Shown: piece by piece, positions 1,050 through 63,605 of the stretch
Position numbering within the stretch: the stretch's first letter is position 1
Layout: each line of letters begins with the position of its first letter
Virus record (IMG/VR): IMGVR_UViG_3300029641_000003
Length of the DNA: 64,000 nucleotides
Origin: a virus
Lineage: Duplodnaviria; Heunggongvirae; Uroviricota; Caudoviricetes
Direction: 5' to 3' (one strand)
Made by a program: the position numbers and the translations under genes
The notes under the pieces: generated by a model
Database searches by the model: none
The model's input: the letters and a program-made list of their open reading frames with translations, nothing else
Told to the model about the DNA's origin: nothing

Positions 1050-1129
1050 GGTTAAACCCTAAATTCGGGCGCGGCGTGAAGATTCTTTTGACGAGGTGAC
1101 AATACTCACTTTGTTATTTAGTCAATAGC

Positions 1130-1193
1130 ATTAGAAAAATAATTTTCTTTAACAAAATCGTCATGTTGTGTTTTAATCTTAATTTTCTAACAC
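1130..1193. promoter_or_regulatory. operator-like half-sites ATTAGAAAAAT and ATTTTCTAACAC in divergent intergenic region
   Basis: Members of the TGTTAGAAAAT motif family, in inverted orientation, in AT-rich spacer between two divergent genes. Confidence 0.4.
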
Positions 1194-1208
1194 ATAACAT
1201 TAGAACAA

Positions 1209-4797: not shown

Positions 4798-4859
4798 CTA
4801 ACACCTCCTTTTTCTTAAATCTTCTCCACTTTGTGATTTTCACTCTTCAGATTTCTTAC

Positions 4860-6016: not shown

Positions 6017-6382
6017 ATGTCTCAGGAACGTCGAAAAGTATTGTTTTATCTTCGTCCTGGTCTTAACGCCAGTGAGCAATATGCTGATGCAAAACTTGAG
6101 GGCCATCCATTAAGAGATCGCAATGATATGGCGCGCACAGCGATGCTTGCAGGTATCGCTCTTGGCGAGGTTGATAGCAGATTACCTCCCATGTTGGCAT
6201 CGCTTTTATCCGGTGATAATAGCCCTGAAGTGATCAGAAAAATGCTGGTTTCATTTCTTGAAATTTCGCCTGAAGTTCGGGAAAACCCTGAAGGAAACCC
6301 CTCTGCCTCAGCGGATGTTAAAAAACCTGGCGTTTCGAAAAGCCGCTCTGCACAGAATTTGGCAAACTCACTCCCTGATTAA
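6017..6382 (+). CDS. parR: ParR/StbB-like centromere-binding adaptor
   Basis: 121-aa ORF immediately after parM; N-terminal RKVLFYLRPGLNASEQ...RTAMLAGIALG resembles R1 ParR. Confidence 0.6.
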   Translation: MSQERRKVLFYLRPGLNASEQYADAKLEGHPLRDRNDMARTAMLAGIALGEVDSRLPPMLASLLSGDNSPEVIRKMLVSFLEISPEVRENPEGNPSASADVKKPGVSKSRSAQNLANSLPD

Positions 6383-10216: not shown

Positions 10217-10250
10217 TGTGTTAGAAAATAAAACTCAATTATCTAACACA
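10217..10250. promoter_or_regulatory. operator: inverted pair TGTGTTAGA(N16)TCTAACACA
   Basis: 9-bp perfect inverted repeat of the dispersed TGTGTTAGAAAAT motif, just upstream of the rdgC start. Confidence 0.5.
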
Positions 10251-12689: not shown

Positions 12690-13558
12690 TCGATCACTCC
12701 GTTTTGAGTGGTATCAAAGTTCCTGGCCGGGATGCAGTAATAAAGGGAGCCGACGTGTTGTGTTCCGTAGCTGAAGATTCGGTGCACGTACCACCAGCGG
12801 CGGGCGAGGCCATTCGCCATTTCTTCGTTCCATTCCAGGATTGAACCAACAGGTACGTTGTTTGCAGCAATACGCAGGATTAGCACTTCATCAGCAAGAC
12901 CATCCTGTTCTCCATCGGCATCAATGGCATGAAACGAATCCCTTCCGTCCGGGTTGTCCAGGACGTATACGATTTCCGGTTCCAGATAGGTAAGCTCACG
13001 CTGGTTGTTGTCCAGTTGCGTGAAAGACTCTTCACCTGTTTCATCGTTTACGACGCCATAGGTGCCATCAGCCGGGCGATATAAAAGCGCCTCGAATGCG
13101 TCAGGGCTTGATTCAATAATGAGCATCCAATCGGCGCGGATCTGGTCGTTGAACGCTTTGTGTCCGTTATATCGGGTTTTAAGCTTCTGGTTTGGTTCTC
13201 TGTTAGCGAGCGATGCCGGTAGGGGGGCGATGTCAGGTTCAATCACTTCCGTAACAGAGTCACCAGCATTATCAGGCCAATTATCATGGCGGCTATCAGC
13301 TTCGGTGGCCGCGTGTTCTTCCAGAATACTGAATGGCCCTGTACTGACCTTCCCATTTTCCGTTGTGCTTCCTTCATTCGCTTCAACCGTCGTTGTCTCT
13401 TCTCTCTGCGTGCTGTCATGTTCTGTTCCCTTTCTCATCAGGCTTGCATCATCAGCAAACCATTCATCAAAACGGCCCATAAGCGTCCTCAAAGGTCGAT
13501 TTATCAGGTATCGAGGGGCATTGTCAGGAGATTGTGATTTCAATTCATATCCCAGCAT
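12686..13558 (-). CDS. acidic baseplate/tail protein (by context)
   Basis: 290-aa Asp/Glu-rich ORF, first of the coupled cluster. Confidence 0.4.
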   Translation of the reverse strand: MLGYELKSQSPDNAPRYLINRPLRTLMGRFDEWFADDASLMRKGTEHDSTQREETTTVEANEGSTTENGKVSTGPFSILEEHAATEADSRHDNWPDNAGDSVTEVIEPDIAPLPASLANREPNQKLKTRYNGHKAFNDQIRADWMLIIESSPDAFEALLYRPADGTYGVVNDETGEESFTQLDNNQRELTYLEPEIVYVLDNPDGRDSFHAIDADGEQDGLADEVLILRIAANNVPVGSILEWNEEMANGLARRWWYVHRIFSYGTQHVGSLYYCIPARNFDTTQNGVIE

Positions 13559-17670: not shown

Positions 17671-17884
17671 GCTTTGGCGTTATGACTCCCTACCGCGCAT
17701 CGGCTGAAAGTTAGTCGTCAAAAGAACCTTCAACGGGAGCCGTTTGCGCAATGGATTTTGTCCAGATTGTGATTTCCAGAATAGTGTCAACAATTTTTTT
17801 GAATTTTTTATTCGCGCTGAATTTGGCCTAAGTCATTTTGGCGTAGATGTTTGCTTTTGTAACATAAAACTTCAGTTTGTTTAC

Positions 17885-19291: not shown

Positions 19292-20233
19292 TTAACTAAC
19301 AATCCAGTCAGTCGCTGCTACATCTTCTGGCTGTAAATCAATCGCACAGATCTTGCCGTCGCGAATGGTGCGCCAGTTTTTCCGTGAGCCTCTTTCGGGC
19401 CATACCCAGACACTTTCAGGCCAGGATGCTCGACGGCATACGGTTGCATACCCTGTTTTAATCTTCTCTCTGGCGGTATGCAACGACAGGTTTGCCTTTG
19501 GACTTTCAGGCACAGGATGGTGAATGGCCTGAAATAGCCCCATCCTGGGATGATACCAGCGTTTGTTGCGTGGTTCAGCCTCCGACATAACCTGCTTAAA
19601 GGCTTTCCGGAAGGGGGCCAGGGCCACAATGGAACGTCGCGCAAGCAAACCATCGGGAGTTAAAAACTCATGCGTATCAGTGGGTATCCGGTAAGCGTTG
19701 ACCAGGTTACGGCATTTGGCTTCAGTCAGGCCGCATTTTGCCGCCAACTGGCGGTAGCCAATGTAGCCTTCCGGAATATTGCCTTTCTTTATTTGCTCGA
19801 CGGTTTCAGCGACTTTGGACACTTGTGCCGATACTTCGGCTACCTGGGCATTAACGGCGTTGATCCGGCGTTCATGCTCAAGATGCATTTGCGCCATTTC
19901 GGCCAGGATTTCGGCTTTTGATTTTAACGGTCCCCTGGCATTCTCCAGTTCGCGCCAGCGGTCCACCAGCCGGGCGGTGAATTCCGGAGAGAGCTGCGCG
20001 ACGACAATGATGCTGTCTCGTTTTCCTTGTTCTCCTTCAAAGATGTAAGCCTTGGAAAATCGACGAGGGCCAACTGATTGTTTATTTTCAATTTCCTCAA
20101 TTTGAGGAAATTGAATGACACCACCTTTAGTTAATACTTCAATGGTTCGCTTCACATTATCATGACGCTTACCTACCAGTTCCGCGATCTCAATGCTGGT
20201 CATTGTCGCTTTTTGAGAGATGGACAGATTCAT
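19292..20233 (-). CDS. antirepressor-like protein (Rha/Ant family), immI-like copy 1
   Basis: N-terminal TMTSIEIAELVGKRHDNVKRTIEVL Rha-type domain; start overlaps stop of upstream small gene (ATGA); paralog at 55936-56643. Confidence 0.6.
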   Translation of the reverse strand: MNLSISQKATMTSIEIAELVGKRHDNVKRTIEVLTKGGVIQFPQIEEIENKQSVGPRRFSKAYIFEGEQGKRDSIIVVAQLSPEFTARLVDRWRELENARGPLKSKAEILAEMAQMHLEHERRINAVNAQVAEVSAQVSKVAETVEQIKKGNIPEGYIGYRQLAAKCGLTEAKCRNLVNAYRIPTDTHEFLTPDGLLARRSIVALAPFRKAFKQVMSEAEPRNKRWYHPRMGLFQAIHHPVPESPKANLSLHTAREKIKTGYATVCRRASWPESVWVWPERGSRKNWRTIRDGKICAIDLQPEDVAATDWIVS

Positions 20234-20448
20234 CAGTGCACCTCCACGCAGTTCATTGGCAGATTCCAGTAATTGAGGATCTCCATCGCATCAAGAGTGA
20301 AGCGTGCGGCAAAAATGCAGGGGTCTTCGGGAAGGTATGAGCGCGCCTCTGCTTCGGTAGCAGCCATTACGCAGATATAGAGGTGTTTTTGGCAGGAATA
20401 GAAACGCCAGATAAATTCAGAATGAGTTGGGGTAGGGATAGTAGCCAT
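20233..20448 (-). CDS. Icd-like small protein, copy 1
   Basis: 71 aa with EFIWRF...AATEAEAR, motifs I recall from Icd-like proteins; AGGAGG RBS; paralog at 56643-56867. Confidence 0.5.
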   Translation of the reverse strand: MATIPTPTHSEFIWRFYSCQKHLYICVMAATEAEARSYLPEDPCIFAARFTLDAMEILNYWNLPMNCVEVH

Positions 20449-21249
20449 ATTGGCAGCCTCCTTTGACTAAGTTAAGGAGCTACCGCGTGAGGTTCCAATC
20501 TCAATGGCGGTAGCACTGACTGGGTTGGAACTACCGGCGTCAAAGGGAACCGGCCTGCCTTTCGGCAGCCCAGCCAGCACTACCATTGATCTCTGAGCTA
20601 AACGCTACGTATGGCTGTGCGATGGCATGACACAAAAAAAGACGCTTTCGGCGTCTGTGTCGCCTTTGACATTATCCGGGGTTCCAATCCCGGCACCCGT
20701 TTTTCTAAGGTGCCGTAGAAATATACCCCACGATAATGCCAGGGCGCAACAGTCAGTATTTTATGCTTTGGCAGATTTCTTTCGGGCTTGCTTGCAGGCG
20801 TAGGCCATTGCTTTAGCTTTCACTTCATCCAGCTTTCCGGTGATCACTTCTTTTCCGAGAGTGACAAACCAGTCATAGCAACCGCCAGTGATGTTCTGGA
20901 TTTGAAAGTTGAGATAGCGAACGGTCATTTTGACACCCCCAGCGCGAGTAAAGAATGCAGATTATCGCGTGAGTGGCGGACAACGAGTGATGGGAAAAGA
21001 CAGTAGCTGTTCATAGTGTAGTGACTCCTTGCTTTCGGAGCCGCCATCGACTGTTCCACGGTCTGGTGGCGGCGCAATAAAGGTTGGAACACCGTGAGTC
21101 AACGGGGGCTTTTCAGCCACCTATATTGCACCGCCATTGGTATGGCGGCGGCAATCATACGAAAAACCAAACGGTTTGTCTCAAAAAGTTGACCGGTGTA
21201 CCAATCGGTTGTGAATGTACAACGGCGAATTTCACAATTCAACTTAAAA
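20449..21249 (-). other. structured untranslated leader between operator and icd-like gene; candidate c4-like antisense RNA region
   Basis: About 800 bp with no credible ORF, several hairpins (GCTACCGC...GCGGTAGC; CTGCC-TTTC-GGCAG) and an internal intrinsic terminator (GACGCCGAAAGCGTC plus T7) at 20630-20665. Confidence 0.3.
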
Positions 21250-21260
21250 TGTTAGAAAAT
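21250..21260. promoter_or_regulatory. operator half-site TGTTAGAAAAT
   Basis: Exact core motif at the head of the immI-like leader. Confidence 0.4.
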
Positions 21261-21835
21261 TAATTTATTAATTCAGTCACCATCTGATACAACGTCATTT
21301 CATCAGCATTGTGCCGCCTGAAATCTGCTTTGCCGCCTATTTTTCCATCAGCATGAACAGGGACCAACCAAGGGTATTGCTCGCGGATCTCTGCTGGCGC
21401 TGCGTGTTGATGGTGCCATTTACACAAAGGGAGGACGTATTTATGCGCGTTCTCTGCTGTTCTCCCGAAGATGTGGTGCAGGGATACCACAGGGCTATGC
21501 TGTCCGTGCATATGGCAGGCAATGCAGGGGAGAGCACCGATGGCAGTTTGTATCCGGCGCTCATCTGCTGTGAGTGTTCTGCCTTTCAGGCCGCGTGACG
21601 CGCGAGTTTTTTTGACAGGAGCAGAAGCGGCCTTCTCTTTTCTTCGCTGTTCATATTGCTTCGCTTTTTCAATTTTCTTTTGCCGATATTCAGGCGATGC
21701 GGCTTTTTCTCGCGCACGCTGCTGCTGGCGTTGAGCTTGCTGAAGACGCTTTGCCCTTTGTTCCTCCCGCCATTTCGGATCAGCCAGTTTTTGCAGGGCT
21801 TTTTGTGTCTGTTTCTCCCAATAGCTTTGCTTCAT
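21260..21835 (-). CDS. ref: Ref-like HNH endonuclease (track ORF extends to TTG at 21877)
   Basis: LPCIACHMHGQHSPVVSLHHIFGRTAENAHKYVLPLCKWHHQ HNH motif; Lys/Arg/Gln-rich N-terminus; start taken at ATG 21835. Confidence 0.7.
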   Translation of the reverse strand: MKQSYWEKQTQKALQKLADPKWREEQRAKRLQQAQRQQQRAREKAASPEYRQKKIEKAKQYEQRRKEKAASAPVKKTRASRGLKGRTLTADERRIQTAIGALPCIACHMHGQHSPVVSLHHIFGRTAENAHKYVLPLCKWHHQHAAPAEIREQYPWLVPVHADGKIGGKADFRRHNADEMTLYQMVTELIN

Positions 21836-21879
21836 AGAAATACCCGGTTTGTCTACATCGCCGCTATGGTTGATCAAAA

Positions 21880-21913
21880 TGTGTTAGAAAATCAAAATTG
21901 ATTTTCTAACACA
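21880..21913. promoter_or_regulatory. 34-bp near-perfect palindromic operator TGTGTTAGAAAATCAA-AA-TTGATTTTCTAACACA
   Basis: 16-bp arms are exact reverse complements; sits between ref and a divergent plus-strand operon. Confidence 0.55.
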
Positions 21914-35161: not shown

Positions 35162-35218
35162 AGTACCCTCCGCAATAGGCGAGGGTACTTTACATTAAAA
35201 TGCACTGTCTAAAAAGAT

Positions 35219-35229
35219 TGTTAGAAAAT
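35219..35229. promoter_or_regulatory. operator half-site TGTTAGAAAAT
   Basis: Exact core motif between cre stop and start of downstream operon. Confidence 0.4.
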
Positions 35230-36530: not shown

Positions 36531-36626
36531 ATTTTCTAATAGGAACAATCAAAAAAAAGCGGTTTTATCCTTTACTCACCTTGTTATTCAGCATAAATTT
36601 GTCACAGGACTTTTATGTTAGAAAAC
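36531..36626. promoter_or_regulatory. operator pair flanking promoter of the c1-position gene
   Basis: ATTTTCTAATA (36531-36541) and TGTTAGAAAAC (36616-36626) in inverted orientation. Confidence 0.45.
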
Positions 36627-36643
36627 TAAATCGAGTAGGAATA

Positions 36644-37681
36644 ATGAGTAAGAAGTCGATCGAGAATGAGTACAAACGGTTCCTGCAAACCGCTGAACGG
36701 TGGAAAGAGCTGGTGGTCGCAAACTCTGTTTTCCATGATACCAGTTATGTTGGCGAGGAATTTCGCCATGTTGCATTAACACATGATCCGGCTGTATTAG
36801 AAGAAGCTGAAAAATGCATAGCCGAATGGAAAGCCTTTGTTGATCTGTGTCGCAAGGATGATGACAAAGCCTCAAACATTGTTGAGTCGGTTTATTTACC
36901 GATCCCATTCATTGTTGAGGATACTAATCAGAGTACGCATATCGTTATGCAAAGCGCAACCACAACGAGAACATTTACGCGCGAAGACCTGTTGAAAAAA
37001 TACGATAAAACTATAAAGAAAAGCATGAAAAACAGGATATTTTCACAGGTTGTCGGTGCGCTTGAAGAAGAACGCAGATTCTTCGCCGCTGAACGTGAGG
37101 GCGAGGTATACCGCGCAAGAAAAGAAGGTTATACCGATGTGGTGATTACCACCAATATCGAGGGCAACAATGGACTTTCACGCTTCAGAGTGGGTACGCA
37201 CGGTGCGCTGATCTTTGCCAGAAAAGCAAACACAGAGATTCCCGTTGTTAACAACGTTGGTGAGCGCCGCACCCTTACCATTTACACTGGCATTAAACCG
37301 CTTCCGTGCGGACTTCTCGGCGAATTTGACCTTTATCGGGTTCGTGATCTGGAAAAGCAGCAGCCAAGCTATGTCGTGAAGTCATATATCCTGAGAAACA
37401 TTGATATCCGCAATCAGAGTTTAAAAAACAAATCAGATAAAATGCTGGCCGAAGCCGATCCAGCCATACACCAGATCGTTAGCCGGAAAATTCAAGAGGC
37501 TAAAGATGCAATGGCAAGGCTGGATAAAATGGACCTGGAACTACTGGAAGTTATGATTGCCTCCGGCGATGACCTGACAGGCATCCGCCTTACTGAAGCC
37601 AGGAAAAAATACGGTAAAAGCGTTGAAGAACGCTATGGGTACACATTCACACAAACGATGTACGCGGCAAAACTCTGGTAA
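36644..37681 (+). CDS. candidate primary repressor (occupies the c1 position between lox and pacB)
   Basis: 345 aa, AGGA RBS; convergent with pacB and divergent from cre as c1 is in P1; homology to C1 not verified. Confidence 0.35.
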   Translation: MSKKSIENEYKRFLQTAERWKELVVANSVFHDTSYVGEEFRHVALTHDPAVLEEAEKCIAEWKAFVDLCRKDDDKASNIVESVYLPIPFIVEDTNQSTHIVMQSATTTRTFTREDLLKKYDKTIKKSMKNRIFSQVVGALEEERRFFAAEREGEVYRARKEGYTDVVITTNIEGNNGLSRFRVGTHGALIFARKANTEIPVVNNVGERRTLTIYTGIKPLPCGLLGEFDLYRVRDLEKQQPSYVVKSYILRNIDIRNQSLKNKSDKMLAEADPAIHQIVSRKIQEAKDAMARLDKMDLELLEVMIASGDDLTGIRLTEARKKYGKSVEERYGYTFTQTMYAAKLW

Positions 37682-41047: not shown

Positions 41048-41078
41048 AAACATGATGTATTAGAAAATTAATATTAAT
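41048..41078. promoter_or_regulatory. operator pair TATTAGAAAAT ... AATTTACTAACAC
   Basis: Inverted motif-family half-sites upstream of lpa-like gene. Confidence 0.45.
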
Positions 41079-41087
41079 TTACTAACA

Positions 41088-41471
41088 CTACCAGCGGGAT
41101 AAACGAACAACATGCTTAACTTTTGCCTCCCACTTCCCTTTATGTTTGTTGATCACCGCCTGGGCCATCTTCAGACTGGCTTCAAAATCGGCTTTTCGAC
41201 CACTATTACCCACCAGCAACGCTCCGTCTATTTCAGGTAAGCATAAGTAATCCTGCTCGACGGTAAGCGGCATTGATGATGTAACCTGGCAGGCTTTCCA
41301 TCTGAAGCGTATGCGCACACTCCTGACTGACATCACGACATAACCTGATATTGTGCTCTTGTGTCCGGCGTCTGTGCGTGTAGCCTTGCATGATGTTATC
41401 TTGCAGGTGATAATGTCCCAACCAATGTGCATCGCATCCTCAATGCGTAATTTAGTAGCCTCGTACATCAA
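41088..41471 (-). CDS. hypothetical protein (127 aa)
   Basis: ATG ORF overlapping next gene by 4 nt. Confidence 0.4.
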   Translation of the reverse strand: MMYEATKLRIEDAMHIGWDIITCKITSCKATRTDAGHKSTISGYVVMSVRSVRIRFRWKACQVTSSMPLTVEQDYLCLPEIDGALLVGNSGRKADFEASLKMAQAVINKHKGKWEAKVKHVVRLSRW

Positions 41472-42497: not shown

Positions 42498-42573
42498 TGG
42501 TGGCCCCTACCGGACTTGAACCGGTGACCGTGCGATTATGAGTCGCCCGCTCTAACCACTGAGCTAAAGGGCC
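42498..42573 (-). tRNA. tRNA-Ile (anticodon CAU, ileX-like)
   Basis: 76 nt GGCCCTTTAGCTCAGTGGTTAGAGCGGGCGACTCATAATCGC...GGTTCAAGTCCGGTAGGGGCCACCA; cloverleaf with CAU anticodon and encoded CCA; near-identical to E. coli ileX as recalled. Confidence 0.8.
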
Positions 42574-42710
42574 AGATTACTGTTAATTACGCTTACGCTT
42601 TTTGCCAGAACCGCGTAAGGCTTTTGCCGCTTGCTCTACCCCGTATGCAACCACCAGCAGAAACAATAATGTCCACTCCGGGTTTTTATCGGCAAACGCC
42701 CAAAAATTCA

Positions 42711-42944
42711 TCACTTACAGCCACCTTGCATTTCCTCGGATAATTCATTGACTTTAGTGCTCAATAAGTAATCAAAGTAAAGATAAAACACAAAAGTAAC
42801 GATAGTGCTTAAAGTGTCTGAAATTGCGTATTTCAGCTCAGGAAGCATGACAAAGCAGACAAATAGCGGAAGAAATAACTGCACTATGCACAGACTCTCC
42901 TTCCACAACCATCTATATCTGAAGTCTGACAACAAAAACTCCAT
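42711..42944 (-). CDS. small membrane protein (77 aa)
   Basis: Hydrophobic segments; stop overlaps start (TGATG) of a further 41-aa hydrophobic ORF at 42583-42711. Confidence 0.35.
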   Translation of the reverse strand: MEFLLSDFRYRWLWKESLCIVQLFLPLFVCFVMLPELKYAISDTLSTIVTFVFYLYFDYLLSTKVNELSEEMQGGCK

Positions 42945-43194
42945 TGCTTGAAACTTTATTAGATTGCGGTGCCTGGTGCCTCCAGGTGACGTTAACCAGT
43001 TAACAATTAACGCCGGGATGTTTGACTTAACTATTAAGGAAAATTGTTTTAACTGTTCCGCGTGCGCTTAGCCGCATTCACCGCAATGGTAAGAGCATTT
43101 GGCTGGCTGGGCGGCGATGACGCCTGTACGCATTTGGTGATCCGGTTCTGCTTCCGGCATTCGCTTAATTAGCCAAATACTCTTAACGTTGCGC

Positions 43195-43281
43195 TGGCGG
43201 AGAGTAATGGAATCGAACCATCATCGCTTGCGCAATGGGACGGTTTTCAAGACCGCTTGAGCACCATGCTCCCTACTCTCC
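43195..43281 (-). tRNA. tRNA-like gene, type II (long variable arm), possible tRNA-Ser(UGA)
   Basis: GGAGAGT/ACTCTCC 7-bp acceptor stem, discriminator G plus CCA, T-arm GATGG-TTCGATT-CCATT, anticodon loop CTTGAAA; D-arm atypical. Confidence 0.4.
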
Positions 43282-43529
43282 AGTGATTGTGGTGGTCGGT
43301 ACTGATCTCCGACTGCGCCTCTTTTTTTCATAGCCCATAAGGCCGGTCAGTGCGCTTGATGACTGAGGCATCGATATTTACTACGCCGCCTCGTTGCCAT
43401 AGGGCGGACTTGCGCGCCAGCAACGCGCATTCACCACAACGGAAAGAGCATTTATGGCTCGCATCGCGGGAAGCGGGAAAAAACCCACGGTAGAGAGTCG
43501 AACTCTACAAATGCTCTTACCTGTTGTGT

Positions 43530-43605
43530 TGGTGCCGGTTAACGGACTCGAACCGCTGACATCCTGCTTACAAGGCAGGCGCTCTACCAACTGAGCTAAA
43601 CCGGC
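43530..43605 (-). tRNA. tRNA-Thr (anticodon UGU)
   Basis: GCCGGTTTAGCTCAGTTGGTAGAGC...CTTGTAA...GGTTCGAGTCCGTTAACCGGCACCA canonical cloverleaf. Confidence 0.85.
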
Positions 43606-43607
43606 AT

Positions 43608-43682
43608 TGGCGATGGTGGATGGATTCGAACCACCGACCAGTTGGTTAACAGCCAACTGCTCTACCACTGAGCTACACCATC
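43608..43682 (-). tRNA. tRNA-Asn (anticodon GUU)
   Basis: GATGGTGTAGCTCAGTGGTAGAGC...CTGTTAA...GGTTCGAATCCATCCACCATCGCCA; 2 nt from tRNA-Thr. Confidence 0.85.
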
Positions 43683-44995
43683 ACTTGCCGGGTACGTCTC
43701 CGGCGAGGGCTTCCACCTCCGTATGCTTTTCGGCGCACCGCGCCCTGGCTGCAATTCGGTAACAGGGGATGCACAACCCTGGCTTCCAGCGTGATTAGCG
43801 CCTTCAGCATGACGGGATATACCCGTTACAAGACATTATTCCAGAAAGCCATTAACCAATGGCTGTTACGCGGAAAGGACGTAACAGGTAAGGGCGCTGA
43901 CCAGAAAGACCTGACCCTTCTCATTCATCTGGTTAATCACACCAGCGCCCTTGCCTGTTATGCCTCCCCGTTCCCTAATACACAGACGGGGACACTCTGC
44001 GGTCGATTTTTTGACGGGGGACGACTCATACCCCGTGGTGTCAGGCTTCTTAGGCCGCTACCATCATCAGATCATCGTTTGCATTTACTTTAATGGTCGG
44101 GTTCTAAACCGCCGCAAAGTCGCTAACCATGACGAAAACACTGAAAAAACACCCACCCGAAGGTGGGCAAATATCCCACTCGCGGTATTGCCACTTAGGC
44201 GTATGGTCAACCTGGCAACTCGGTGTCCTCAACGGGGAAGGAATAACCCCGCCATACTTACCGCCGCGCCTGTCGCGGTTATCGCTACGTATCAACATAA
44301 AAGCCGACTGCCTGAGCAAGATTCACTTTCAAAGGCCCGCAGAAAGGAATCCATAGTCGGCTTTTATCTTGAAGCGGCTCTCTCTCCGCCCGTCACCGCT
44401 CTGTCTCGGTTGTCACGTTTGCCACGCCAGCCGTAACGAGGTTTAAAGTCTTTGCACGTTTCCATCACTCGACTGCCGTCTGTGGCTGTTCGTTGCAGCG
44501 GGGGTGCCTCCCCCTGGGGATATCCCCGGCCTTACCCCATTCTTTCAAGACACAATGCAAGGCCACATCCGCATAGGTGCATTACCGCAACGTTAAGGAG
44601 ACTCAGAGTCAGCAAAATAAGAGGAAAACCCAACTCTGCGCCTCCTTAACGTTGAGGATGTGCACTGATGATGACCCGATGCAGCCTGGCCCACTTAACA
44701 TACTCACTGCCAGATCATCATCAATGAACACCATAAAAAGACCTTCCGTGGCTCAAGTCACTGTCGTTTACTCCGTAAAATGCTCTCGCTGAAACCACTT
44801 TACGCACTAAACCTGCCGGGCATGTATTTGCACGGTGCCGGAGCTTTCCCTTACCTTAAAATTTACTTTCTAACACTTAAATTTGTTTGATGCTGGTGGG
44901 GAAAGACAATGAAGTGACTATCAAACCCGCAAGCGACATGGGAAGCTCCCCACCAGCACGAAAAATTCTATGTTAAGTTAACCCCATAATCAATA

Positions 44996-45027
44996 TGTTA
45001 GAAAAACAATTTTAATTTTCTAACATA
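44996..45027. promoter_or_regulatory. operator: inverted pair ATGTTAGAAAA(N10)TTTTCTAACAT
   Basis: 11-bp perfect inverted repeat; another half-site TTTCTAACAC at 44867-44876. Confidence 0.5.
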
Positions 45028-46236: not shown

Positions 46237-46260
46237 GTTTGTTCCCTTTCTTGAAATTAG

Positions 46261-46270
46261 TTTTCTAACA
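46261..46270. promoter_or_regulatory. operator half-site TTTTCTAACA
   Basis: 25 bp upstream of start of 45028-46236. Confidence 0.4.
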
Positions 46271-46311
46271 TATTTTATTAGTATGCAATTTCAATAAAAA
46301 GACTCAGGCAA

Positions 46312-46335
46312 CAAAAAACCCGCCAACTGGCGGGT
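46312..46335 (-). terminator. intrinsic terminator ending the darB operon
   Basis: CCCGCC-AACT-GGCGGG hairpin followed on minus strand by a run of 6 T. Confidence 0.55.
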
Positions 46336-46345
46336 TTATGACCGT

Positions 46346-46868: not shown

Positions 46869-47315
46869 TTAATCAAGATTTACATATTCCGTGATAGCTT
46901 TTATGGCTTCATCGGCACTGCGCGCCTCAAAGCAGTAATAGCCTGCTTCCGTGAGGCGAGTCATCCAGACGAGCTGTTCGGGAGTCAGACGGTTTCTCCC
47001 GTGCTTCATCTCAATGCGCATTCCGTGATACCCACCACGAGCAAGGTCAATAGAAAGGTCCGGATAGCCCTTCTTCTGACCTTCTGCCACCATCTTAATG
47101 GCTGTCCTTTTGCCTCTCAGGCCGCCGTTCGGTGTTGAGTGTGTGTGCTCATACACGTATCGCATGTTGCGATACAGCCAATCCAGAACGCGAACCTGTT
47201 CGTAATGTTCGTAATTCCGTTTTAATAAGTCAGGTTTTCTTTCTAACTCTCTCAGTGCAGCAGCGTGCGGGGATATTTCAGAATACGCACTATGATGCCT
47301 GCGTCTTCGCATCAA
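46869..47315 (-). CDS. VRR-NUC domain nuclease (start uncertain)
   Basis: GYPDLSIDL...RIEMKHG fits PD-(D/E)xK core of VRR-NUC. Confidence 0.55.
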   Translation of the reverse strand: MMRRRRHHSAYSEISPHAAALRELERKPDLLKRNYEHYEQVRVLDWLYRNMRYVYEHTHSTPNGGLRGKRTAIKMVAEGQKKGYPDLSIDLARGGYHGMRIEMKHGRNRLTPEQLVWMTRLTEAGYYCFEARSADEAIKAITEYVNLD

Positions 47316-47316
47316 A

Positions 47317-47327
47317 TTTCTAACACA
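47317..47327. promoter_or_regulatory. operator half-site TTTCTAACACA
   Basis: Motif-family member abutting the VRR-NUC ORF start. Confidence 0.4.
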
Positions 47328-47501
47328 AACCTCCTTAATTCATAATCACGATAATAACAAGAGCGTTAGTTTTATCAAAACCGGGGGGAATACTACTAAA
47401 GAGATAGGTGGATGCAACAGGTCGGATTTGTTTTTAGAGCAAATGGTGATAAGGGTCAACAAGCCGGGTAAATTGTATGTCATTTACCCAACTTGTTATT
47501 T

Positions 47502-47762
47502 TTAATGGTTTATTTTATCCGGTTCGTTAATTTCCGTAACCGCCTTGTCGATAGCGATCATCCATCCTTCATAGGATAAATCATCAACAAGCCCCACCAG
47601 CTTATCGTCAGTGTGCGGAAAATAAATCCATCCCCATTTCGAAGGGTTTTCTATATGCCGCAGGGTAAATACCCGCTTATAACGGTGGTATTCAAGGGCG
47701 TATCCCTTCCCTTGTGAGTACGCTTTTAAGTCGTCGATCGTAAACCTACGATTCTTTCGCAT
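47502..47762 (-). CDS. hypothetical protein (86 aa)
   Basis: ATG ORF in darB operon. Confidence 0.4.
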   Translation of the reverse strand: MRKNRRFTIDDLKAYSQGKGYALEYHRYKRVFTLRHIENPSKWGWIYFPHTDDKLVGLVDDLSYEGWMIAIDKAVTEINEPDKINH

Positions 47763-54200: not shown

Positions 54201-55084
54201 TCGGGGATCATCTCCAGGAAGGTTTCCGGGTGTTTACGCAATACCCATACGTCCACCACCGTATCTGTACCGGATTCGCTGAACGTACCAGAAGGCATAC
54301 GATGCGCGCCCAAAAATTCCGCTTTACGGCTGACTTTATCGCGCAATTTTTTGTATTTCGTACCATCGGTCATGCCATTCGGCACCACCAATACAATTAG
54401 TCCACCAGGCTTAACCTTGTCGATTGTGCGCAGCACAAAGTAATTGCCAACGTTCTTCTCGTTTGCATATGCCGGATCAAGCCCGGCGACACCGGAACGC
54501 CCTTCACCAAACGGTACGTTACCAACAGCGTGATCATACATTGCGTCTTTCGCCGCCAGCGCCTCAAACGCCCCGATATTCACATCGTCTTCCGGGTGCA
54601 AAAGCTGGTTTATTCGACCGGAAATCGGAGACAGTTCGGCGCTGGTCATTATCATGCCCTGCCGTTTTGTCTCCTGGAAAATACCTGTGCCCGCTGATGG
54701 TTCCAGTACGTGCCCGCCATCAATACCGTAGTCAGCAAACAGATCCCATATACCTTCAGCCATAAACTGTGGCGTGTAGTATTCGTATTGGCTGCCCTCA
54801 CCATCTGTCAGGCCGCCTTCACCGGTATACCCGGCAAGAATCTGACGTTGTTCGTCAGTTAATTTCGCCCCATCGAAGCCGGGCGGAAGGGAATTAAGAA
54901 GATTTACTGCGGCGTTGTTTGCTGCCCGGCGTGTTTTCTGAATACTGACGCCATCGACTTTCTTAACGCCAAAGGTCACTACAGCTCGCGGTTTATGCAA
55001 CCGACTAACAATTTCAATCAGCGCCCCAATGCTGGTGGCCTGGCTAATTGAATCAATTATTTTGTCCAAAGGAAGCCCCCTCAA
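48236..55084 (-). CDS. darB: DarB-like antirestriction protein (N6-adenine methyltransferase plus SF2 helicase, 2282 aa)
   Basis: Single 6.8-kb frame; SAM motif VLEPSAGTG in N-terminal region; helicase Walker A GFGTGLGKTT and DEGH box (SVIADEGHNYRNS); size matches P1 DarB. Confidence 0.85.
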   Translation of the reverse strand: MRGLPLDKIIDSISQATSIGALIEIVSRLHKPRAVVTFGVKKVDGVSIQKTRRAANNAAVNLLNSLPPGFDGAKLTDEQRQILAGYTGEGGLTDGEGSQYEYYTPQFMAEGIWDLFADYGIDGGHVLEPSAGTGIFQETKRQGMIMTSAELSPISGRINQLLHPEDDVNIGAFEALAAKDAMYDHAVGNVPFGEGRSGVAGLDPAYANEKNVGNYFVLRTIDKVKPGGLIVLVVPNGMTDGTKYKKLRDKVSRKAEFLGAHRMPSGTFSESGTDTVVDVWVLRKHPETFLEMIPDTDDATLKSANVLWDTFLKGKWFTTEGKRFVYGDMERTSFRNTLVVKKDGRVSNESMKTALSRRFDSRINWDLLGVTTQAWQGAKVGDKRLVGGIWHEFDGLKWVKDTTTKSSALDVSRYGVSTFGDLQIAFQSTNGILALSWDQISAIASDYPSVVSDEVAAMIRFAGKQREKDRERVMRGALIGQLINKALDLRNLGVNVDDKLADASRLAAAEVAKYGPPHAIKLNGLAEAGAKNWMTFTGNVKQDGSTSDLLAGRLDVTDGAAGIDFTRPEQVIAHLFSDVALNPITLGDFREAFAGELPEDDDAALEYLAKFDDIAIDGYGCLLPMDRATSGDIATKTTLLVGWRDASTGEQKANFERQLAKIEEKRIFTPLNKVTVNLNARWLDRRLIKEFLAEQGYDEFKYTEPDLKVVDGILVSPDDYEGKDGVFTGYQLRTVNGKNGNEFKKANNKDGFLNQLENYLNGVKPRGQNANEYLDKIAQLEVSFNDWLRTHPQADQIARDYNDAFNGFIPFTHSNAPLGLEGISGKRIPLTYQNEEVRRLSEDGRGIMGFGTGLGKTTTALALEAYNFETGRTKRTCIVVPKAVYQNWYHEAQSFYSADAFANMMFIGLDEVRDEDGNILTAPVLDENGEPRLDSNGQPLTRNVVKESASAVIVQRMNMIPSSNWRTVIMTKEQFASIPLREKTIEENSQQAVFNAVEMGRLDLASGKHRDAQKKNKIKDQAANTGTTKKQNIPYFEDMNFDSVIADEGHNYRNSFNAGREAGQLAYLPNPAVSKMARDMAVKAAYMMKRNNGRGVVMLTATPLVNSPIDAFNMLSTVIPQEEWMRMGIITPDDFVRVFGKTATVQVQKISGEVEEKQGLVGFQNLDGLRGIFHRWTTLKTAADVGATVKIPDIVENTLQIPMTGEQEAAYEELRKRAQELSSKDALTVDENGHITNEKPDDFIFSIIRDMDKVAIDPDLYASAITFQFPVELADKVKAIADALPKVAGGKVADDADEVEEDGAGGLVNTRTSKVVKTTFSEHPVHVEIRASIELEAEILKAIAAAGIDLQQVSHPIPPKYAALIENLREGLKNGKQIVFIDEKAQHQKLRRIIASALQMPEQEIGIINATTVSQAGGIKLKKVNKPTEPTPNKNGEYKEGAWETYYSKLAQYEDYLSAKNDAGLEGMEGIAADYNEGRTRIIICNKKAEVGINLHIGTTDIHHLTLPWTPASIDQRNGRGARVGSPQEKVNVHYYCGKGTFDDFRLDTLKRKKDWIKMVMTSDMSEIANGDADDADERAIMLAANPEERRAIMARQAQEREERLKLKAQREANNALDIYLKAANAAGKDIGMMETELKSAMEQIEYYQRNLDDLIKAGTNRNGQKFALEQLSSYRKRARVLRFAITRAKDADTIMKRSRGDVERAIKSGVLDISIDVIQNPQEYMRTDKNILLHKGSYYRAVIDDRETTAIVRVEKIDGEKAQYLCRIAWLDRASRYARSPGSIVTLPFDSVIEAVTFEEGVAESRATAARGVQCHQLSTILTRDQFYDAIRNGVMNVIAGKPGNAWGGGSAIKYWAYRTDDGQIALSSAYDGVIGQKIGRASDIAPERWIYPDGNDEALKREVAKIQASDNPLNIVDGEGFLQALYGYDYIQGMQAWGAQATMDDVAQEFENWMAGRGLSGRSLNKVTSEDILSLFRKPSGEGLESFWRTVLAYRLFQGRMKAFSNIDDIERMFNQVKIAKIKTKIEKTRSALVAWRDALFEQYKSLSDADGWAALEQLANNGVDGAKLAIVQADNPLESPAAQWIKVGAVINAFDEKISKDDFADAVSVNRLVEMATRRARELKDGDYVNELPDALKSATWQDYVSLKNGGATESEIAERLEQAESKREEQAAVAEARADEAANDDYIIVVNDKPIRAKARVRGRWWSVSEDVGAVYLIADQPGSSTIRNAKDAIKKIGGRFWNFEANPVADVNFDRPAWMVSTRYSVDELRKIIADAA

Positions 55085-55221
55085 AACCGTTAAATCCGCC
55101 TTAAGCGGTTCGGTTTGAGAGGGTATGGAGAATGTTATTTTCAGGGATGAACGACACTACCGTCAAAATCACATACTCACCATAGTTTGCCTACTTATTA
55201 ACCCATGAGCGGGAGAAATAT

Positions 55222-55738: not shown

Positions 55739-55951
55739 TCAAGTTACGATCCAATCATTACCGACTGCATCCGCCGTCGATAAATCGACTTCCCGGATCT
55801 GGTATCCATTAATACAAAACCATCCAGTAGTAGAGCTATTATCAGGCCAGACCCATACACCAACACTCCATGCTTTACGGCGGCACACTTCAGCCTGTCC
55901 TTCCCTGATTTTTTTTACCGCCTGCATGATGTCCATCACTCGCCTCCCCAA
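55739..55951 (-). pseudogene. C-terminal segment of Ant-like protein in shifted frame
   Basis: Product aligns with the C-terminal tail of the copy-1 Ant (CRRKAWSVGVWVWPD vs CRRASWPESVWVWPE; DWIVT vs DWIVS) but is in another frame from 55936-56643. Confidence 0.4.
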
Positions 55952-56643
55952 CCGATTACCTGGAATTGCCCCATCCTTGGGTGATACCAGCGTTTTCCTC
56001 GGTGTTCAGCCTCCGACATCATCAGGGTAAAGGCATTCATGAAGGGAGATAAGGCCACAATAGTACGACGCGACAATACCCCCTCTGGCGTCAAAAACTC
56101 ATGCGTATCTGTGGGGATCCGGTAAGCGTTGACCAGGTTACGGCATTTGGCTTCAGTCAGGCCGCATTTCGCCGCCAGTTGGCGGTAGCCAATGTAGCCT
56201 TCTGGTATGTTGCCTTTCTTGATCTGCTCGACGGTTTCAGCGACCTGGCTAACCTTTGACTCAACAGCATGAAGCCGCTTTTGCTGCTGAACTGCATTCG
56301 CAGCCATTGCAGCGATCATCTCTATTTCGGTCAACGGCTGGCGTACTTGTTCTTCCAGTTCGCGCCAGCGGTCCACCAGCCGGGCGGTGAATTCGGGAGA
56401 GAGCTGCGCAACGACAATAATGCTGTCTCGTTTGCCTTGCTCGCCTTCGAAGACGTAAGCCTCAACGCCACGACGCAATCCTAAGTTATTGATTTTTTCG
56501 AAAACAGCCATTGGCGGTTTTCGGATAATGCTTCGAGCAACCATACGCTCAATACTACGTTTAACGTCAGAGTGTTGACTTCCCACCAGCTCCGCAATCT
56601 CAATGCTGGTCATTGATAGTTTTTCGAGAATGCAGATATCCAT
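55936..56643 (-). CDS. antirepressor-like protein (Rha/Ant family), immI-like copy 2, C-terminally truncated by frameshift
   Basis: Paralog of 19292-20233 with identical central block (VFEGEQGKRDSIIVVAQLSPEFTARLVDRWRELE); ends early at GWGGE. Confidence 0.6.
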   Translation of the reverse strand: MDICILEKLSMTSIEIAELVGSQHSDVKRSIERMVARSIIRKPPMAVFEKINNLGLRRGVEAYVFEGEQGKRDSIIVVAQLSPEFTARLVDRWRELEEQVRQPLTEIEMIAAMAANAVQQQKRLHAVESKVSQVAETVEQIKKGNIPEGYIGYRQLAAKCGLTEAKCRNLVNAYRIPTDTHEFLTPEGVLSRRTIVALSPFMNAFTLMMSEAEHRGKRWYHPRMGQFQVIGWGGE

Positions 56644-56867
56644 CAGTGAGCCTCCGCAATGCCGGGATTGGTAATATTGCGATACCAGGGATTAGTGTTT
56701 GGTTGTGGGGAAGTAGAGAAACGACCAGTGAGAACGCCATACTGATCAGGGATCAGAGAACGGGCTTCTTTTTCAGTTGCGGCAATTGCGAAGTGATCAC
56801 AATGTTTTTGCAGGGAGTGGAAACGCCAGATGAATTCTGGGCGTGAGCAATGATTGGCATTAACCAT
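56643..56867 (-). CDS. Icd-like small protein, copy 2
   Basis: EFIWRFHSLQKH...AATEKEARS, paralog of 20233-20448; start of ant overlaps its stop. Confidence 0.5.
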   Translation of the reverse strand: MVNANHCSRPEFIWRFHSLQKHCDHFAIAATEKEARSLIPDQYGVLTGRFSTSPQPNTNPWYRNITNPGIAEAH

Positions 56868-57196
56868 AGTTACGGCCTCGTAAGTTGATAAACAACCTGC
56901 GACCCGCTGTCAAACAGGTGGCAGGACGTGACAGGGTTGACAGACTGGCACTTACGAAACCAGCAGGCCGAAGCCTCCCCATCACGCCCCACCATAATTC
57001 GGGCGTAACGTGGTTTTACGGACACAAAAATACCGCAATATCGGAAATGTGCGGTTGTCCGCGTAAGTATTCAGGCTGTCAAACCTGGTCGCAGAATTTG
57101 CTACGACGGCATGAATATAAGCCTGAACATTAGAAAGATCAACAGAATTTTTATCAAATGCTGTTTTTTAGTGACAATGTAAATCATACATTCTTG
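56868..57196 (-). other. structured untranslated leader, copy 2 (candidate c4-like RNA region)
   Basis: No ORF; hairpin CCGCA...TGCGG followed by U-run ending TTTTTGTGTC, the same tail as in copy 1. Confidence 0.3.
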
Positions 57197-57226
57197 ATTA
57201 GAAACATCAATTTAATTTTCTAACAT
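57197..57226. promoter_or_regulatory. operator pair ATTAGAAACAT ... TTTTCTAACAT
   Basis: Inverted motif-family half-sites at head of immI-like copy 2. Confidence 0.45.
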
Positions 57227-57282
57227 AGATTTTCGAGCGATGAAATTCCCGCCGCACGGTTATTGTACAGTCAATCGCAACA

Positions 57283-58242
57283 TCATCCCCGAAAGCCCTC
57301 CGGAATTGACCAGTCTTCCCGGTCAAATTCAGACCGATAGCCACGCTGTATCATCAGGTCAAATGCTTCATTGATGGTTGCACATCCCTGGGAACCAGAA
57401 TAATCCATAGAGAAATCCAGGGCGCTGGATCGTTTGGGCTTATTCACTGTGGTAGCACTACGTAACCATGCAAATTTTTTTGCCAGTTTTTCAGCGGTAC
57501 GATACAGAGCCTGCCGTTTTGCGTACCCCTCGTCTGAACGACGCTTTGCAGCTCTCGCTTTTGCTGCCGCCAGGCAGTGGTTGGTATGTTCTTCCCTGAT
57601 TACTGTTTTTTTATCCAGCAAGCCATTATCCGCTTGAGAACTATCTGCTGGTGAAGCCTTTGGCTGAACCGCGCATGATCTTTCTCTTCTTTTGGCTATA
57701 GAGTGACTCTTATTTTCTATTGGCTGTTCATTTTGAACATGGGGGGGCTTGTTCAATTTGAACAGGGGGTTCCCAGTTTCAAAAAAATAACGAACCTTTG
57801 AAATCAACTGCTTAACCAGTTTTGTGGCGTTGGCAAATTTGATGCCCTGCTTACTCCCTATCTCCATTGCTACATGAATGAAGTGGAGAAATTGTGTTGT
57901 AAACCGGTACACGTTACACACCTGAGCATTGTTATTCGCTACCTGATGCTGCTTAACAAGCATTCCGCACTTCGTCGCTTCGGCAAATGCCCGGCGCACA
58001 GTAGAAATACTGCGTCCTGTAATCTCGGACATATCCGCATATGAGCGACGGATCATGTATTCATCGGTAGCTCCTGCCAGGTTGGCGAACTCGGCAATAA
58101 TGGCGCTATGTGAAGGGGAAAGAAAACCGCTATGACGAGCAAAAAAACTCAACTGATGACCTTTGATTTTTTTGTGGTATTCAGTGTTGTTTTTATACTC
58201 AGAAGTGTTGAAAGTAACTGAAACTGAATTTAAAATACTCAC
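57283..58242 (-). CDS. putative replication/regulatory protein with HTH (RepL-like by position)
   Basis: 319 aa; HTH MSEITGRSISTVRRAFAEATKCGML; operator 170 bp upstream; adjacent to immI-like module as kilA-repL is in P1. Confidence 0.3.
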   Translation of the reverse strand: MSILNSVSVTFNTSEYKNNTEYHKKIKGHQLSFFARHSGFLSPSHSAIIAEFANLAGATDEYMIRRSYADMSEITGRSISTVRRAFAEATKCGMLVKQHQVANNNAQVCNVYRFTTQFLHFIHVAMEIGSKQGIKFANATKLVKQLISKVRYFFETGNPLFKLNKPPHVQNEQPIENKSHSIAKRRERSCAVQPKASPADSSQADNGLLDKKTVIREEHTNHCLAAAKARAAKRRSDEGYAKRQALYRTAEKLAKKFAWLRSATTVNKPKRSSALDFSMDYSGSQGCATINEAFDLMIQRGYRSEFDREDWSIPEGFRG

Positions 58243-58412: not shown

Positions 58413-58425
58413 TGTGTTAGAAAAT
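58413..58425. promoter_or_regulatory. operator half-site TGTGTTAGAAAAT
   Basis: Exact 13-bp motif between pro-like stop and RepL-like start. Confidence 0.45.
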
Positions 58426-61139: not shown

Positions 61140-61371
61140 GATTCACCGCAAAAGGTTTCCGATTTCGTGGCAGCTTATCCAGTGTGTGATTTCATCAGTA
61201 ATTTTTCGTTGTTTTCACTATTTGCTGATGTTTTTTCATATGCGGAAATGCTTTTCCAAAAACGCAACCACTAAACAAAGAAGTTATGTTTATAAACATT
61301 TTTGTTGTGTTTTATATCTTTTGTGTTATTATCCTTGTCGCCCATGATGGATAAATTGCATAAGGAAACTT

Positions 61372-63514: not shown

Positions 63515-63605
63515 AATTAACCACCTTTCTGTAAAAAAGGCAGTGTAAAAAGTGTGTTATTTCGGTGACTATTTTAAGAAGAAAGGGGCATTCTGCCCCT
63601 TTCTT

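Follow-up and report, generated by a model that had tools for sequence, protein, structure and literature searches.

A dispersed family of candidate C1-type operators, distinct in sequence from those of P1, in a D6-like plasmid prophage

Phage P1 carries about 22 dispersed, asymmetric 17-bp operators for its immunity repressor C1, with the consensus that is used for comparison below (PMC8546580), and the P1 genes ref, ssb, dmt, kilA and ban are under C1 control (PMC4713147). Here we describe a comparable set of sites in a 64,000-nucleotide stretch of viral DNA (IMG/VR record IMGVR_UViG_3300029641_000003; hereafter, the window). The window is a D6-like, P1-related plasmid prophage, with 88% nucleotide identity to phage D6 across the shared parts and 97% identity to E. 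coli plasmids over 87-88% of a 20-kb query. One short motif recurs in it at positions that largely correspond to those of the P1 operators. On the basis of sequence comparison, the sites of this motif family are probably the operators of a C1-type repressor that the element itself encodes (at 36644-37681), and through them the lytic genes would be kept off.

The motif, TGTGTTAGAAAAT, has 17 matches at two or fewer mismatches on the two strands of the window. Dinucleotide-preserving shuffles contained 1.96 matches on average and 7 at most, and none of 100 shuffles reached 17. When a position weight matrix (PWM) made from the sites was used to rescan the window, the scores were bimodal: 17 sites scored 20 or more, the next one 16.4, and the background did not exceed 11. 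A previous sequence-only reading of this DNA had proposed a recurring motif of 11-13 bp. Its recurrence is real and well above chance (17 copies versus about two expected), but its length was underestimated, as the aligned copies show that conservation extends 3' into an AT-rich TAAwtT tail, for a site of about 19 bp, T[G/A]TGTTAGAAAAT-TAAwtT. The sites, 17 strong and 3 weak, are asymmetric and dispersed, and they occur singly or inverted at 12 loci, five of them pairs (Table 1). Coding sequence makes up 86% of the window, and every one of the 12 loci lies between genes (P about 5e-11). The five inverted pairs share a single 13+8+13 geometry, in which the half-sites are offset by 21 bp, and the same offset is found in the pairs of phage D6. 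The pair at 21880-21913, TGTGTTAGAAAAT-caaaattg-ATTTTCTAACACA, has perfectly complementary 13-bp arms on either side of its 8-bp spacer.

A site is present at each of the 13 loci listed in the sequence-only reading, and the coordinates given there were right apart from small shifts. The stretches 41048-41078 and 57197-57226 do contain sites, the true extents of which are the pairs 41056-41089 and 57194-57227, the latter with a degenerate left half. The stretch 1130-1193 resolves into one strong site (1182-1194, minus) and one weak site (1127-1139, plus), whereas 36531-36626 combines the strong site 36614-36626 with a minus-strand site at 36531-36543 that is weak yet evolutionarily conserved.

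For the comparison with P1, we aligned the 20 annotated, experimentally based C1 operators of P1 record AF234172. The alignment yielded ATTGCTCTAATAAATTT, with an invariant TAA core; the P1 consensus given in the earlier reading was thus correct, both by this alignment and by the published consensus (PMC8546580). The window contains no match to ATTGCTCTAATAAATTT, even with three mismatches allowed. Counts with the D6-type and the P1-type PWM (threshold for P1-PWM sites, a score of at least 14) were 18 and 0 in the window, 14 and 0 in D6, and 0 and 21 in P1, respectively; the two kinds of site are mutually exclusive. About 10 of the 12 window loci match annotated P1 C1 operators by position. 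The proposal that the distribution mirrors that of the P1 operators while the sequence differs is therefore borne out. The accompanying suggestion of a "rewired" repressor specificity holds relative to P1 only, since phage D6 has the same motif.

Phage D6 (MF356679 / AY753669) and the D6-like plasmid prophages share the backbone, the motif and the loci of the window. Seventeen sites occupy the same slots in D6, whose structural block at 22.5-54 kb is free of them. The two sets differ in detail: the ref, lpa and tRNA loci are bivalent in the window and monovalent or decayed in D6, and D6 possesses a pair between ppp and pdcB for which the window has no equivalent. The D6 GenBank records carry no annotated operators, and no paper linking D6 with C1 operators was found in the searchable literature; the papers on D6 may nevertheless hold an earlier description. 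Phylogenetic footprinting was performed on the orthologous intergenic regions of the window, of D6 and of one plasmid each from Salmonella and Enterobacter, whose C1 proteins are 67% and 40% identical, respectively, to that of the window. In the c1, lpa, pmgS, tRNA and dre-downstream regions of these four-genome alignments, the operator blocks form conserved islands amid heavily diverged flanks, and the islands adjoin conserved promoter-like hexamers and terminator hairpins. The TTTTCTAA block at the weak site upstream of c1 (36531-36543) is kept in all four genomes, and the lpa-proximal half of the pair at 41056-41089 in D6 and the Enterobacter plasmid. A site lies right before c1 in each relative examined, and the dre-downstream slot is also filled in the Citrobacter and Pantoea relatives and in two others (L011 and L012).

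The product of 36644-37681 is 81% identical to the C1 of D6 and 21% identical to that of P1 over 241 aa (BLASTP, E=2e-7). The family phrog_1678 matches both the window C1 and P1 C1 (E=4e-159 and 3e-140, respectively), and C1 homologs carry the precomputed Pfam assignment PF27008 (Phage_P7_repressor_C1). By sequence and gene order, then, this protein is a remote C1 homolog in a syntenic slot. A Pfam search with one local copy gave no match for the window C1 or for P1-type C1, and sequence searches of the PDB with C1 were likewise negative. This type of repressor is carried by 153 plasmid records (tblastn), among which discrete C1 classes are apparent; a protein search adds further variants. The c1 allele of the window (at least 99% identity) occurs in 7 of the 153 records and that of D6 in about 100.

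The class of the motif follows the clade of the repressor. C1 proteins with 100, 81 and 67% identity to the window C1 are accompanied by TRTGTTAGAAAAT, those with 50 and 48% identity by wTGTTAGAAAAAtA, and the one with 40% identity by nnCGTTAGAAAAT. The Citrobacter and Pantoea elements (C1 about 30% identical) have AAAnCCTTAGAAT at the ref/early, recombinase-downstream, c1 and lpa slots. The P1 clade (21%), including variants 53-58% identical to P1 C1, has ATTGCTCTAAT or ATTGCTCTAATmAATT and zero D6-type sites. All of these classes keep TTAGA/TCTAA, the core that does not vary among the P1 operators defined by experiment. The pattern fits a single repressor family whose putative sites have a common core and clade-specific flanks. 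Another candidate for the Pantoea element, GTTAACTTT, was dropped on inspection for the CCTTAGAAT-type sites.

Taken as a whole, the system would operate as follows. In the plasmid-prophage state, C1 would occupy each asymmetric site of about 19 bp, probably as a monomer, and at the five inverted pairs two C1 molecules would be placed on one face of the DNA, their cores 21 bp, or two helical turns, apart. Binding would shut the sigma-70 promoters of the lytic starter genes, by promoter occlusion or as a roadblock. In keeping with this, the sites at pmgS and the tRNA operon overlap a predicted -10 hexamer, and those at c1 and pmgM closely follow a predicted promoter (details below). The presumed targets are lpa (coding for the late-gene activator) together with pacAB; the lytic replication gene repL; the two C4-icd-antirepressor modules; ref along with the early operon that diverges from it; the hrdC-methylase, tRNA/tci and dut operons; and pmgS and pmgM. 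The c1 gene would also repress itself. No direct repression is envisaged for the late structural operons, which would be silent because Lpa is not made. Since the specificity differs from the ATTGCTCTAATAAATTT of P1, heteroimmunity towards P1 and P7 is expected of the element, as is a specificity in common with phage D6. Most likely, this heteroimmune C1 regulon is the expected counterpart of the known P1 system, with another DNA "password". It is a variant of the P1-type system rather than a new type of system; its motif already occurs in phage D6.

The resemblance to the ImmC system of P1 and P7 is extensive. The two repressors are homologs that belong to one PHROG and one Pfam family and are encoded in the same genome slot, and in both cases the operators are numerous, asymmetric and dispersed, with single sites as well as inverted pairs. 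The targets in common are c1, lpa, repL, c4-icd-ant, ref, hrdC/dmt, the tRNA-tci operon and pmgR/S; at P1 pmgL/M, as here, a late promoter lies beside an operator. The TCTAA core is common to P1 and D6-type operators, and the two-tier scheme, in which late genes would be controlled indirectly via Lpa and a separate late-promoter motif, is P1-like. Unlike in P1, the operator is about 19 bp long instead of 17 bp, with zero cross-matches between the two sequences; C1, at 345 aa, carries a helical extension of some 90-100 aa at its C terminus for which P1 C1 has no equivalent; the C4-icd-antirepressor modules number two rather than one; and there are extra operator loci downstream of dre and at orf52.

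Several observations weigh against this assignment of the sites to C1. The window C1 scores 24 bits with the P1-C1 equivalog model NF041318 (NCBIfam), compared with a cut-off of 500 bits and with 607 for P1 C1 itself, and the two proteins share only 21% sequence identity. Homologs of Lxc and Coi are absent from the window (nothing better than E=0.3 by tblastn), and consequently the circuit cannot run exactly as that of P1. The inverted pairs span 34 bp here, with the order TTAGA...TCTAA and cores 21 bp apart, as opposed to 28 bp, TCTAA...TTAGA and 13 bp in P1; if the cores are homologous, the pairs would be built differently in the two types. The CCTTAGAAT class is modestly enriched (9 sites versus 4.4 expected in Citrobacter, 4 versus 3.1 in Pantoea), and its exact matches number 4 in Citrobacter and 2 in Pantoea, so that the Pantoea statistics are weak. 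The promoter assignments are consensus matches, and promoter-like sites in the scanned region show no significant enrichment (6 versus 4.0). Finally, genomes that differ in C1 clade have also diverged as a whole, which confounds the link between motif class and clade, and another linked regulator is therefore possible.

A homology search with P1 proteins also found no homologs of ImcA/B, Ant1, Ant2, KilA or C8 in the window. The P1 lxc slot, after darB-ulx, is occupied by an 86-aa ORF (47502-47762, minus) with no detectable similarity to Lxc (82 aa), which is possibly a positional analog of Lxc.

The helical C-terminal extension (C1 residues ~250-345, 37400-37681) is found in the D6-, Enterobacter-, Citrobacter- and Pantoea-type C1 proteins, where it displays an invariant ASGD...AR..YG pattern, and is missing from all P1-type C1 proteins. 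Its presence goes along with a lack of Lxc and Coi and with the altered geometry of the paired operators. Speculatively, the extension may have taken over roles in pairing or modulation.

The confounding by genome divergence counts in favour of the strongest of the alternatives, in which another regulator, from the element or the host (for example an Xre/HigA-like protein, an antirepressor-linked factor or a nucleoid protein), binds the sites and C1 reads other DNA. In the local Pfam copy, moreover, C1 shows no recognisable classical DNA-binding motif. We nevertheless consider this explanation unlikely. A site stands directly before c1 in all the relatives examined, the loci are those under C1 control in P1, and the TCTAA core that is invariant in the defined P1 C1 operators is kept in all classes. 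The motif class differs between P1 and D6-type elements despite their common E. coli host, which argues against a host factor in particular.

Alternatively, the motif could be a common early-promoter element, composed of an extended -10 and a start-site module for the host RNA polymerase, that was copied among early promoters. This is suggested by the 5' end of the operator, TATGTT, which coincides in two scans with the predicted -10 hexamer of pmgS and the tRNA operon, with TTGAAA 16-17 bp upstream. The site at 46260 overlaps the predicted promoter TTGAAA-16-TATGTT, and the first six nucleotides of the right half of 44994-45027 are TATGTT, 17 bp downstream of TTGAAA. On the other hand, many sites have TGTGTT instead, a poor -10, and four of the nine single sites (1182, 21248, 35217 and 58413) point away from their gene. 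Five loci are inverted pairs of exact geometry, and the analogy with P1 puts operators at exactly these positions. The c1 and pmgM sites, furthermore, are located just downstream of the predicted promoters: the c1-proximal site follows a conserved promoter-like TTTACT-17-TAAATT, its extended 19-bp form ending 12 bp before the c1 ATG, and the pmgM site follows a sigma-70-like promoter (10/12 match) by about 24 bp and is also downstream of a late-promoter motif (47481-47501). An early-promoter element is less probable still than a different regulator.

The least tenable explanation, that of Lpa-dependent late-promoter elements driving late genes, can appeal to the two sites that precede the morphogenetic-annotated genes pmgS and pmgM, and is very improbable given that TGTTAGAAAAT sites precede c1, lpa, repL and C4-icd-ant (early and C1-controlled in P1), that they are missing from the D6 structural block, and that a distinct motif fills the P1 late-promoter slots. 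The P1 late promoters align to AACAAGTGACTT-N5-TAnAAT; their general form is a -22 box, AACAAGTGACTT, followed 5-6 bp later by a TAnnnT -10, before structural and lysis operons. The candidate operators differ from it in form as well as in placement. As the P1 box AACAAGTGACTT is not enriched in the window (7 versus 5.4), we searched for a separate D6-type late motif; unrestricted k-mer enrichment was dominated by Chi, and the search was limited to upstream regions instead. AAATMACA-N7-TAnnnT proved to be enriched in both the window (15 versus 2.5) and D6 (16 versus 4.6). It occurs 30-60 bp upstream of gene 23, upfC, gene 7, mat, pmgM, darB, the lysin gene, prt and ddrB, and in D6 additionally before lydA, the R/S tail-fibre genes and pmgB/sit. 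These slots are those of P1 LP23, LPmat, LPpro, LPdar, LPs, LPsit and LPpmgL. The motif is likely to be the D6-type Lpa-dependent late promoter, distinct from the P1 AACAAGTGACTT box; the Lpa protein is 34% identical to that of P1, which makes a changed late box plausible.

The genome is therefore split by two motif families as in P1, with operators at early and regulatory genes and late boxes at structural ones. Of the outcomes that the sequence-only reading would have taken as refutation, a chance-level motif frequency and late-promoter identity were both checked, and both fail. The sequence-only reading had placed the operators before ref, lpa, both Icd/Ant modules, repL, c1 and the rdgC/methyltransferase operon, and a site is found at each of these loci. 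It had also placed one before the darB operon, where there is none; the region upstream of darB carries the late-promoter motif, and the site at 47315 precedes pmgM. A further correction is that sites also stand before the morphogenetic genes pmgS and pmgM, as is the case in P1.

The newest element of this analysis is the predicted Tus-like fold of the C1 family. To our knowledge, the fold of the P1-, P7- and D6-type C1 proteins has never been solved, and no paper linking Tus with C1 was found in the searchable literature. Tus acts as a monomer, recognises an asymmetric site about 21 bp long by means of β-strands, and controls its own synthesis at TerB. This mode of binding fits the classical picture of P1 C1, in which a monomer occupies asymmetric operators. 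Tus is the only match of the predicted C1 structure, and the likeness spans the whole Tus fold (PF05472); the comparison uses predicted structures, and its TM-scores are low (0.33-0.40). For a P1-type C1 model, the four Tus entries rank 1-4 among 350,542 chains, a result that is not significant and, given the low confidence of that model (pLDDT, the predicted local distance difference test, of 57), only suggestive. Sequence homology to Tus is not convincing. With hhalign, the D6-type profile gave a probability of 0.2% against Tus, and a combined C1 profile 7.9% (E=0.004, 95 columns) against a Tus profile that is shallow because all the Tus homologs returned are at least 81% identical. An hmmsearch with C1 against the PDB sequences gave no match. 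The known functions differ: Tus-Ter arrests replication forks, whereas C1 represses transcription. A resemblance of TerB (AATAAGTATGTTGTAACTAAAGT, from K-12) to the c1 and pmgS operators (TATGTT..AACTAAA) was rejected, being not above shuffles (P=0.36 and 0.57). As regards position, TerB lies 11 bp upstream of the tus ATG (E. coli K-12 record L013, 6227-6249), and the c1-proximal operator (window 36611-36634) 12 bp before the c1 ATG.

A broader proposal, which we offer tentatively and regard as somewhat less likely to be right than wrong, is that the whole C1 family (P1, P7 and D6) might consist of Tus-fold monomers that bind long asymmetric sites via a Tus-like cleft. The TTAGA core would be maintained over at least four classes while immunity types arise by changes in the flanks, and the helical C-terminal domain of the D6 type would replace the Lxc/Coi layer and set the two-turn pairing. 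If true, Tus, a narrowly distributed enterobacterial replication terminator, would be tied to phage-plasmid repressors; if confirmed, the fold would explain how a monomeric P1 C1 reads asymmetric sites.

E. coli, Shigella and Salmonella commonly carry D6-like plasmid prophages, and knowledge of their operators and regulon can be converted into predicted immunity groups, i.e., which phage-plasmids exclude each other. The same knowledge can be used to annotate early versus late transcription units across the D6-like family and to design orthogonal repressor/operator pairs beside Dre/rox, a tool from the same phage that is already in wide use. Across the C1 clades, changes of specificity form a natural series in which the TTAGA core stays fixed.

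The gene order of the window is that of D6: gene 23, the partition genes, hrdC-methylases, tail genes, mat, antirepressor/icd and ref, then the long early operon, dut, dre, rox, c1, pacBA and lpa, and lastly the tRNAs, pmgS/R/M, ulx, darB, lysin, ant/icd, repL, pro, prt and ddrB. The coordinates of c1, of the candidate operators and of the late-promoter motif are collected in Table 1.

Table 1. Candidate operators, the c1 gene and late-promoter motif sites of the window, with their counterparts in P1 and D6
Position (strand)	Feature	Location	PWM score	Counterparts and conservation
1127-1139 (+)	Weak site	Divergent region common with capsid gene 23	16.4	
1182-1194 (-)	Candidate monovalent operator	15 bp upstream of orf52-like gene (1209-1601, plus); divergent region common with capsid gene 23	32.3	D6 54201-54219; P1 none clear
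10217-10250	Candidate bivalent operator (inverted pair)	Upstream of hrdC(rdgC)-cytosine methylase-adenine methylase operon (minus)		Identical pair in D6 64114-64147; P1 Odmt, before uhr-hrdC-dmt
21248-21260 (+)	Candidate monovalent operator	Just past ref stop codon; upstream (minus direction) of isrK-like RNA, C4 RNA, icd, antirepressor module 19292-20713	29.9	P1 Omat slot at ref end; kept in D6 at 75978
21880-21913	Candidate bivalent operator (inverted pair), perfect arms	Between ref (minus, 21260-21877) and long rightward early operon	30.0 + 30.6	P1 Oref; D6 single site 76630-76648
35217-35229 (+)	Candidate monovalent operator	Right after dre; precedes orf117-orf116-dut operon in minus direction		Block kept in D6, Salmonella pK91, Enterobacter plasmid; P1 none clear
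36531-36543 (-)	Weak conserved candidate upstream operator, ACATTTTCTAATA on plus strand (k-mer match)	c1 control region		
36614-36626 (+)	Candidate c1-proximal operator, TATGTTAGAAAAC	c1 control region	26.0	P1 Oc1a-e
36644-37681 (+)	c1, candidate D6-type C1 immunity repressor, 345 aa	Between rox/dre and pacB		Same place in D6
41056-41089	Candidate bivalent operator (inverted pair)	Upstream of lpa-pacA-pacB (minus)		P1 Olpa
44865-44877 (-)	Candidate monovalent operator	Upstream of tRNA(Asn,Thr,Ser)-tci-tRNA(Met-CAT) cluster (minus)		Kept in 3 genomes; with 44994-45027, P1 Obanab
44994-45027	Candidate bivalent operator (inverted pair)	Right after pmgS stop codon, heading tRNA/tci operon		With 44865, P1 Obanab (bivalent in both genomes), before tRNA-tci-ban operon
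46260-46272 (-)	Candidate monovalent operator	Between pmgR terminator hairpin and pmgS		P1 OpmgRa, OpmgRb
47315-47327 (-)	Candidate monovalent operator	pmgM start		P1 same combination, LPpmgL + O26
57194-57227	Candidate operator pair (inverted); strong right half 57215-57227, degenerate left half	Heads a1b1-C4 RNA-icd-antirepressor operon (minus)		P1 Oc4, before c4-icd-ant
58413-58425 (+)	Candidate monovalent operator	pro-repL intergenic, upstream of repL (57283-58242, minus)		P1 OrepL
1099-1119 (-), 4819-4839 (-), 13520-13540 (-), 17755-17775 (-), 47481-47501 (-), 55120-55140 (-), 55166-55186 (+), 61172-61192 (-), 63542-63562 (-)	AAATMACA-N7-TAnnnT sites			

In the window and in relatives L011 and L012, the c1 promoter is flanked by a pair of divergent sites separated by 83-89 bp, an arrangement that recalls the multi-operator, looping control of P1 c1. 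The RepL protein, whose gene is preceded by a single site, is 28% identical to P1 RepL (E=2e-25).

The window contains two immI-like modules (19292-20713 and 55936-57120), each with a C4 antisense RNA (20503-20590 and 56914-56999, minus), an icd homolog and a non-P1 antirepressor, and each headed by a D6-type operator. The first includes an isrK-like RNA (20635-20713) and the second an a1b1 (c4-a1b1) target element (57068-57120). Two hairpins are also evident next to operators. The strong intrinsic terminator hairpin AAACCCGCCAGTTGGCGGGTTTTTT (46316-46337, minus) divides pmgR from the putatively operator-controlled pmgS promoter, and a conserved GC-rich hairpin, GTACCCTC...GAGGGTAC (35165-35195), is flanked by the operator downstream of dre and by orf117.

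In D6 (MF356679, 6084-7850), ARAGORN assigns the tRNA genes to the minus strand, as opposed to the plus strand given in the GenBank record, and detects a fourth tRNA, Met-CAT (ileX-like position, 6084-6159), that is absent from the annotation of that record. The window has the same four tRNAs, likewise on the minus strand (42498-43682).

The Chi sequence (GCTGGTGG) is present in 44 exact copies in the 64 kb, 15 on the plus and 29 on the minus strand, versus about 2 expected. Over-representation of Chi is known for P1, and the related Pantoea, Citrobacter and Enterobacter loci are similarly rich in Chi.

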